64,000 bases of DNA from Escherichia coli (GTDB taxonomy: Bacteria; Pseudomonadota; Gammaproteobacteria; Enterobacterales; Enterobacteriaceae): NCBI RefSeq assembly GCF_022846255.1, contig NZ_AP025682.1; one strand, written 5' to 3'. This document shows, in pieces, positions 23,306-24,175 of the stretch. The position numbers and the translations under genes are program-made. The notes under the pieces were generated by a model. It was not told the DNA's origin. It did not search any database and saw nothing but the letters and a program-made list of their open reading frames with translations. Position 1 is the first letter of the stretch. Each line of letters opens with the position of its first letter.

Positions 23306-23329
23306 TTTCAGGGTAGCATCTTTGTTGTA

Positions 23330-23359
23330 ATGACATTAGCGTTACATGTGCTGTATAAT
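23330..23359 (+). promoter_or_regulatory. sigma70-like promoter of the toxin-antitoxin operon (-35 ATGACA, 18-bp spacer, -10 TATAAT)
   Basis: Motifs read from sequence; GGAT Shine-Dalgarno follows before the antitoxin ATG at 23391. Confidence 0.55.
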
Positions 23360-23390
23360 TATCATCCATGCAAAGCCGAAGGATATATTT

Positions 23391-23684
23391 ATGCCAGCAG
23401 CCAATAACATTCCAACCAGGCGCGAATCTTTAAATTTGCGCATAAAACCCGCAGAACGCGATCTTATTGACCGGGCCGCTAAAGCCCGAGGAAAAAATCG
23501 CACCGAATTTGTCCTTGAGGCCGCCAGAGCCGCTGCTGAAGAGGCGCTCATTGAGCAGAGAATTTTCAGGATCGATTCTGATGATTACCAGCTATTTTTG
23601 AATCGTCTGGATCAGCCCCCCGCGCCCAATGCTGCATTACGCAAAACCATGCAAACACCCGCGCCGTGGGAGCAAAAAAAATGA
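23391..23684 (+). CDS. DUF1778 (TacA/AtaR-like) ribbon-helix-helix antitoxin
   Basis: 97-aa [37 protein letters not shown]…[12 protein letters not shown]…; RHH-like N-terminus plus the …PPAPN… C-terminal segment typical of antitoxins paired with GNAT toxins; ATG chosen inside the track ORF because it has a Shine-Dalgarno. Confidence 0.8.
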
Positions 23685-24175
23685 TTCAGGCCCCCGAGCC
23701 ACTCATGGCAAGGCATCAATTCACCTCTTTTTGCTCGGGAGTAGAAACGATGGATAACTGGCTAAAGCAGAGGGCCCTAAAAAATCAGCTTGCCGGCGCA
23801 TCACGTACATTTGTTAGCTGTGATACGTATAGCAACGTTTTGGCATATTATTCGCTTGCTTCCAGCGCCGTTGAAACGTATGTCGCGACAGGACGATTTC
23901 GCCGAAATATGCCAGAACCGATCCCTGTTGTAGTACTTGGTCGTCTGGCAATAGATAAATCATTACAGGGTCAGGGCATCGGTCGTGCGATGGTCAGAGA
24001 TGCCGGTCTACGAGTACTACAGGCGGCTGAAGTCATTGGTATTCGCGGAATGTTGGTCCATGCGTTATCAGACCAGGCCCGAGAGTTTTATCTGCGAGTG
24101 GGGTTTGAACCATCGCCTGTCGATTCTATGATACTGATGGCAACATTGGCTGATTTGCAGGAATGTCTTAAATAG
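23681..24175 (+). CDS. GNAT-family acetyltransferase toxin (TacT/AtaT/ItaT-like)
   Basis: 164-aa [17 protein letters not shown]…FCSG…[12 protein letters not shown]…[16 protein letters not shown]…[10 protein letters not shown]; the N-terminal APEPL segment and the Q-G-x-G-x-G acetyl-CoA-loop-like motif resemble TacT as I recall it; ATGA start/stop overlap with the antitoxin; GGGAG Shine-Dalgarno 8 nt upstream. Confidence 0.8.

Follow-up and report, generated by a model that had tools for sequence, protein, structure and literature searches.

A chromosomal GNAT/DUF1778 toxin-antitoxin operon at the rne-flgL locus of Escherichia coli, very probably orthologous to Salmonella TacA2-TacT2

The DNA studied here, called the window throughout, is a stretch of 64,000 nucleotides from Escherichia coli (contig NZ_AP025682.1 of assembly GCF_022846255.1), in which a two-gene operon follows rne on the plus strand. 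Its putative sigma-70-type promoter (23330..23359, +), recognised by consensus scan only, consists of ATGACA (23330-23335), an 18-nt spacer and TATAAT (23354-23359), and agrees with the consensus at 11 of 12 positions. The same promoter site is carried by strain SCU-111, and the -35/-10 region of the window is conserved with Salmonella tacAT2. Direct reading of the sequence places a Shine-Dalgarno element, GAAGGA (23378..23383, +), 7 nt 5' of the ATG at 23391 that opens the antitoxin gene (23391..23684, +; 97 aa), and the toxin gene (23681..24175, +; 164 aa) begins within the end of it, as the antitoxin stop (TGA) and the toxin ATG share an ATGA overlap at 23681-23684. An earlier sequence-only reading of this DNA had described the promoter, the Shine-Dalgarno element, the two ORFs of 97 and 164 codons, their overlap and several peptide motifs, among them DQPPAPN in the antitoxin and FYLRVGF in the toxin, and all of these were found where it had put them. 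Older annotations give longer ORFs starting at 23346 (112 aa) and 23666 (169 aa); the 97- and 164-aa versions agree with RefSeq and with the Salmonella orthologues.

The matches to Pfam PF08681, to GNAT domains and to PDB chains indicate that these ORFs are not chance. Residues 14-88 of the antitoxin match the Pfam family TacA1/DUF1778 (PF08681) with an E-value of 1.5e-26, and RHH_1 matches residues 17-50 weakly. When all PDB sequences were searched, the best match of the antitoxin was 7AK7_C (E 1.2e-45), and the TacA, KacA and AtaR chains in PDB were all matched as well. The toxin is matched by three GNAT Pfam families (best E 7e-09), and its best match among all PDB sequences is 7AK7_A (E 7.7e-76), followed by the TacT entries 5FVJ, 7AK8 and 7F36 (~1e-44), KacT, AtaT and lastly 6G96. 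The proposal that a DUF1778/ribbon-helix-helix antitoxin is here paired with a GNAT toxin was thus confirmed by profile and structure searches. The antitoxin would accordingly bind DNA with its N-terminal ribbon-helix-helix part and neutralise the toxin with its C-terminal part. The RefSeq name of the antitoxin (PGAP, WP_ accession) is 'type II toxin-antitoxin system TacA family antitoxin', and together with PF08681 and 7AK7_C it supports calling the gene tacA2-like. RefSeq names the toxin (WP_ accession) only 'GNAT family N-acetyltransferase'; the gene is called tacT2-like here on the basis of 7AK7_A, its identity to TacT2 and the GNAT Pfam domains. No NCBIfam model matched either protein, and neither was matched at E 0.01 or better by any family of PADLOC, which covers anti-phage defence.

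TacA2-like antitoxin genes of alpha-, beta- and gamma-proteobacteria are preceded by a conserved 19-bp palindrome, GTAATGAC-N3-GTCATTAC. A scan of species-representative genomes recovered 49 homologous loci in these three classes, with 30-71% identity, and in 26 of them the palindrome occurs exactly once at two or fewer mismatches. In the loci where the antitoxin gene was located it lies just upstream of that gene, at a distance of about 20-80 nt in loci L004-L051. The window holds a degenerate copy at 23327..23345 (+), GTAATGAC-ATT-AGCGTTAC, which overlaps the -35 hexamer and reads in full GTAATGACATTAGCGTTAC, its right arm matching at five of eight positions. This copy is the sole match at three or fewer mismatches in the 64-kb window, where 0.25 would be expected by chance. 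The copy at Salmonella tacAT2, GTAATGACATCTGCGTTAC, is degenerate in the same way, and the right arm GCGTTAC is common to E. coli and Salmonella. The palindrome is likely to be an autorepression operator bound by the antitoxin, as its position is that expected for a ribbon-helix-helix antitoxin, and it offers a testable operator for the subfamily.

The putative operator, the promoter and both genes belong to a cassette of about 880 bp that replaces a 63-bp spacer between rne and flgL. The rne gene ends at 23258 and is followed by its intrinsic terminator, a hairpin and T-run found by terminator scan (23277..23310, +), which forms the left cassette boundary; flgL lies at 26418-27371 on the minus strand. 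The rne5 element of Rfam, the autoregulatory structure of the RNase E 5'UTR, is intact upstream of rne (19712-20048, +; 260 bits), as expected of the backbone. The window was aligned with the filled alleles of SCU-111 and APEC E14033 and with the empty allele of C41(DE3). In this alignment of filled and empty alleles the common sequence ends at ...TTTTTTATTTCA, and the cassette starts right after the rne terminator and stops right before the A-run of the flgL terminator, where in K-12 the sRNA FlgO has its 3' end as well. Since insertion between two convergent terminators disrupts no gene, we infer that the neutral gap between those of rne and flgL/FlgO explains why the cassette lies here. The 63-bp spacer of the empty allele was also considered as a scar of cassette deletion. 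Its best local alignment to the cassette scored 9, the mean for shuffled sequences being 10.1, and 448 of the 500 shuffles did at least as well as the observed spacer; with no significant similarity to the cassette, the spacer shows no visible deletion scar, and this candidate was rejected.

The sequence-only reading had placed the pair outside the K-12 backbone, and this is correct as regards the rne-flgL locus, the position at which it was checked: MG1655 and C41(DE3) both have the empty site. The comparison of the region across E. coli, which that reading had proposed, covered 5426 complete genomes; the full cassette was found in 685 (about one in eight, ~13%) and the empty site in 4735. 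The copies are chromosomal, single and 98.8-99.8% identical, and the three carrier loci that were examined in detail all lie at rne-flgL. The cassette is a fixed presence/absence polymorphism and a lineage-restricted accessory element; for part of the E. coli population, whether rne-flgL is filled or empty makes a clean marker. The carriers include, going by their strain labels, ST69, ST38, ST648, 405, 042 and O127:H6, which we take to represent ST69, ST38, ST405, ST648, 042 and E2348/69; these belong to phylogroups D, F and B2. Just one 'partial' copy was seen in these genomes, that of HS-02 (locus L058, 1560-2200), and it was rejected as a decayed allele, as its long A/T homopolymer runs look like an error of long-read assembly; PGAP labels this copy a GNAT pseudogene. 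At toxin codon 101 (window 23981-23983) a G101D substitution was seen in APEC E14033 (locus L003) and altogether in 77 of the 685 carriers, the listed examples being chicken isolates.

Outside E. coli the species-representative scan, seeded with exact 8-residue peptides of the query, returned no Escherichia or Salmonella locus, and it is because of these exact seeds that TacT2 was missed. It did recover homologues of about 70% identity in Chimaeribacter, Mesorhizobium, Acidiphilium and Thiobacillus, which argues for horizontal spread. In contigs that encode precisely the TacT2 of S. Enteritidis, the pair lies between genes for an AraC-family regulator and a PAP2 phosphatase, near dsbD-cutA-dcuA. 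As the chromosomal sites differ, the module has either moved or been independently acquired in E. coli and Salmonella.

The suggestion that the pair lies between rne and flgL holds on one side: it adjoins rne, whose terminator ends at ~23310, but is separated from flgL by an IS200 with a nested IS4. The IS200, a canonical one (24197-26342; 709 bp without its insert), starts 21 bp after the toxin stop codon and includes tnpA (24304-24765, minus strand; NF033573, E 9e-43) and the STnc490/art200 RNA of the IS200 5'UTR (24772-24895; Rfam, 120 bits). The IS4 (24890-26315; 1426 bp; NF033592, E 9e-91) splits it and has an 11-bp target duplication, CAGCCTAGCTG, on its two sides (24879-24889 and 26316-26326). 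The junction of the toxin-antitoxin module with IS200 is absent from all complete RefSeq E. coli genomes, and the best identity that any of these genomes shows to the flanking 12 kb is 99.6%. The terminal hairpin of IS200 (24204-24222) followed by TTTTT was identified by the terminator scan as an intrinsic terminator just past the toxin gene (24204..24230, +), and within 24176-24230 the element supplies a strong terminator for the operon. At its other end IS200 was inserted in the terminator U-tract of FlgO/flgL and shortened it from seven to five U. The FlgO orthologue, the sRNA from the flgL 3'UTR known in K-12 as b4826, lies at 26343-26418 on the minus strand, and the shortened U-tract could affect its termination or its Hfq binding in the window strain.

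As comparators the sequence-only reading had named TacT, AtaT, ItaT and KacT. They do belong to the same family, but the nearest relative is TacT2, which was not among them. By BLASTP the toxin is 74.5% identical to TacT2 over residues 1-161 without gaps; the next best is TacT (49%), followed by GmvT (48%), AtaT2 (44%), KacT (39%), AtaT (33%), TacT3 (29%) and ItaT (26%), the lower values being approximate as the reference sequences come partly from an OCR'd supplement. Chain 7AK7_A has the sequence that Supplementary Table 4 of PMC9177977 gives for TacT2, and it has Phe at position 137. In the Salmonella toxins the catalytic mutant of TacT2 is Y137F, TacT was crystallised as Y140F and 6G96 is TacT3(Y143F) (PMC5959882). 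The identity to the TacT2 sequence together with Phe137 identifies 7AK7 as TacT2(Y137F)/TacA2, and the Y137F/Y143F numbering, again with that sequence, rules out the alternative that 7AK7 is TacAT3. By sequence comparison, the nearest solved relative of the window pair is the Salmonella TacA2-TacT2 complex, PDB 7AK7 chains A and C.

All in all, the module very probably encodes a chromosomal type II toxin-antitoxin system of the GNAT/DUF1778 (TacAT) kind, and is in E. coli what TacA2-TacT2 is in Salmonella and KacA2-KacT2 in Klebsiella, their orthologue. Toxicity and its neutralisation have been shown for S. Enteritidis TacT2 (PMC5959882) and for KacT2 (PMC9431474), and acetylation of the alpha-amino group of aminoacyl-tRNA for orthologues (PMC5959882, PMC9177977). 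If the E. coli pair works in the same way, the single promoter would give a bicistronic mRNA, and the ATGA overlap seen in the sequence would couple translation of the two genes. From the behaviour of the family, the antitoxin is expected to dimerise through its ribbon-helix-helix N-terminus and, alone or with the toxin, to bind the palindrome over the -35 hexamer and repress its own operon, in line with the conservation of the operator. Its C-terminal segment probably wraps the toxin and blocks the active site, given 81% identity to the TacA2 chain of 7AK7. Free toxin is predicted to N-acetylate Gly-tRNAGly in an acetyl-CoA-dependent reaction; the window toxin retains the catalytic Tyr137 and the basic residues that bind tRNA. 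Judging from the experiments with TacT2, ribosomes would then stall at Gly codons and growth would stop reversibly, and peptidyl-tRNA hydrolase would be expected to undo the damage, as reported for Tac toxins.

The prediction of Gly-tRNAGly comes from the clade. It has been shown that Gly-tRNAGly is almost the sole in vivo target of TacT, TacT2, TacT3, AtaT2 and GmvT, which belong to clade D, and that two more clade D toxins, from Burkholderia and Rhizobium, are also Gly-specific in vivo, the broader specificities being those of AtaT and KacT (clade A) and ItaT (clade B) (PMC9177977). As the window toxin groups with TacT2, Gly-tRNAGly is the best prediction and most likely its target by clade membership. 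It is unlikely that the protein is a true tRNA acetyltransferase with a specificity unlike that of TacT2, for instance broad and acting on hydrophobic aminoacyl-tRNAs as in AtaT or KacT, or directed to Ile as in ItaT. Specificities in vitro and in vivo have disagreed repeatedly in this family of toxins, and 26% of the toxin residues are unlike those of TacT2, which leaves some room for such a shift. However, every clade D toxin assayed was Gly-specific in vivo, even though those other than TacT2 are only 29-49% identical to the window toxin, and the toxins with broad specificity, AtaT, KacT and ItaT, are its most distant relatives (26-39%). With the relation to TacT2 and the location in the terminator gap, the two questions left open by the sequence-only reading, which tRNA is targeted and why the pair sits at this site, have largely been answered.

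The gap-free alignment to TacT2 means that residue numbers transfer directly to the window toxin. In S. Enteritidis the toxicity of TacT2 is abolished by Y137F and by R88G, and residue 29 matters too, as TacT2 of S. Typhimurium, which is weak, naturally has Glu there (E29) and the potent TacT2 of S. Enteritidis has Lys (E29K) (PMC5959882); in KacT2 toxicity is abolished by D78A (PMC9431474). The window toxin carries K29, R88 and Y137, the last aligning with the Tyr that was mutated in TacT2(Y137F), TacT(Y140F) and TacT3(Y143F). At position 78 it has Glu, compared with the Asp tested in KacT2, and the toxic AtaT2 also has Glu here when aligned; Glu78 is a conservative change. The acetyl-CoA motif (Q/R-x-x-G-x-G/A) reads Q96-G-Q-G99-I-G101. 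The expectation that the pair is intact therefore stood, as both ORFs are full length and the alignment retains the catalytic Tyr and the acetyl-CoA-binding residues. As far as can be read from the sequence, there is no sign of inactivation in the module, the experimentally critical residues being kept (with Glu at 78), and the pair is probably functional.

We find it quite unlikely that the module survives as a remnant, attenuated or domesticated, in which intact genes encode a weak or non-toxic toxin and persist as a neutral passenger or as a source of anti-addiction antitoxin. Single substitutions do silence close orthologues, as in TacT2 of S. Typhimurium (E29) and KacT2 of K. pneumoniae HS11286 (A78), and the window toxin has Glu78 and not the tested Asp. 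The G101D change lies within the acetyl-CoA-binding motif, and its presence in 77 of the 685 carrier genomes indicates that weakened alleles do circulate; G101D may be a candidate natural attenuated allele. The window allele, however, has Gly at position 101 and K29, the potent state, besides R88 and Y137, and the Glu at the 78-equivalent position of toxic AtaT2 speaks against a loss of function through that residue. Across E. coli, both ORFs are full length in 685 of the 686 copies. Compared with Salmonella, amino-acid identity (74-81%) is above nucleotide identity (70%), which indicates purifying selection and speaks against a remnant.

The position of the cassette also raises a regulatory possibility. 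In the native allele (locus L001, 4914-5010) the terminator scan detected no intrinsic terminator on the plus strand past the toxin gene; transcription from that allele would therefore continue, antisense, into FlgO and flgL. It is conceivable, but we consider it very unlikely, that derepression of the toxin-antitoxin operon lowers FlgO/flgL by antisense transcription in the ~13% of genomes that carry the cassette, or, as a second possibility, that the target of the toxin has drifted from Gly. If true, the antisense reading would tie the regulation of flagella to a persistence module. That the proteins are an ordinary housekeeping or metabolic GNAT beside a small ribbon-helix-helix regulator, and not a toxin-antitoxin pair, can practically be dismissed: the RefSeq name of the toxin is generic and the generic GNAT Pfam matches are modest, but the protein is 74.5% identical to a toxin with experimentally shown toxicity and neutralisation, the operon agrees with TacA2-TacT2 in partner gene, gene order and ATGA overlap, and a TacA-type partner recurs in almost all the related loci recovered from distant Proteobacteria.

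The reading of the module as a TacA2-TacT2 orthologue allows the label 'GNAT family N-acetyltransferase / DUF1778 protein' to be replaced by a precise name, tacAT2-like with Gly-tRNAGly as predicted target, and beyond annotation its significance is small. Publications already cover the family and its subclade, as well as structures and biochemical activity, and the exact proteins are already in RefSeq; as an orthologue of a well-understood system, the module is an ordinary accessory gene pair. In the literature that was searched there was no paper testing the E. coli copy, and nothing was returned when the E. coli proteins were searched for by RefSeq accession; according to reviews, the characterised E. 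coli GNAT toxins are AtaT, AtaT2 and ItaT only. In extraintestinal and avian pathogenic lineages, the module would bring a further toxin aimed at translation into the set of toxin-antitoxin systems related to persistence.

Among known systems, TacA2-TacT2 of Salmonella enterica (PDB 7AK7; Rycroft et al. 2018, PMC5959882) is the closest to the window pair, with the same 97-aa antitoxin, a toxin of 163/164 aa and the ATGA overlap. The toxins are 74.5% and the antitoxins 81% (79/97) identical, Y137, R88 and K29 are conserved, a stretch of 16 residues at the antitoxin C-terminus is identical, and the promoter/operator region is similar (GTAATGAC...GCGTTAC). The two differ in that the Salmonella site is not rne-flgL, and in position 78, which is Asp there and Glu in E. 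coli. KacA2-KacT2 of Klebsiella pneumoniae (PMC9431474) is likewise chromosomal and bicistronic and belongs to the same TacT2 clade; KacT2 is reported to be 88% identical to TacT2, toxic when induced and neutralised by its cognate antitoxin (PMC9431474). Natural non-toxic A78 alleles exist in Klebsiella, compared with E78 in the window; the comparison with KacT2 draws on its published description.

Further away, TacT (TacT1), GmvT and AtaT2 share with the window toxin the fold, the catalytic Tyr and the N-terminal motif APEPL...DxWLKxxxxKNQ, and they are specific for Gly-tRNAGly in vivo, but they are only 44-49% identical to it and their antitoxins are non-cognate. The gene found here is not that of AtaT2, which is the GNAT toxin known from E. 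coli O157:H7. The most distant are AtaR-AtaT, KacA-KacT, ItaR-ItaT and TacA3-TacT3, whose toxins are 26-39% identical to that of the window. They follow the same logic of a DUF1778 antitoxin with a GNAT aminoacyl-tRNA acetyltransferase, and three of their toxins, AtaT, KacT and ItaT, fall in clades A and B and act broadly or with a bias to Ile.
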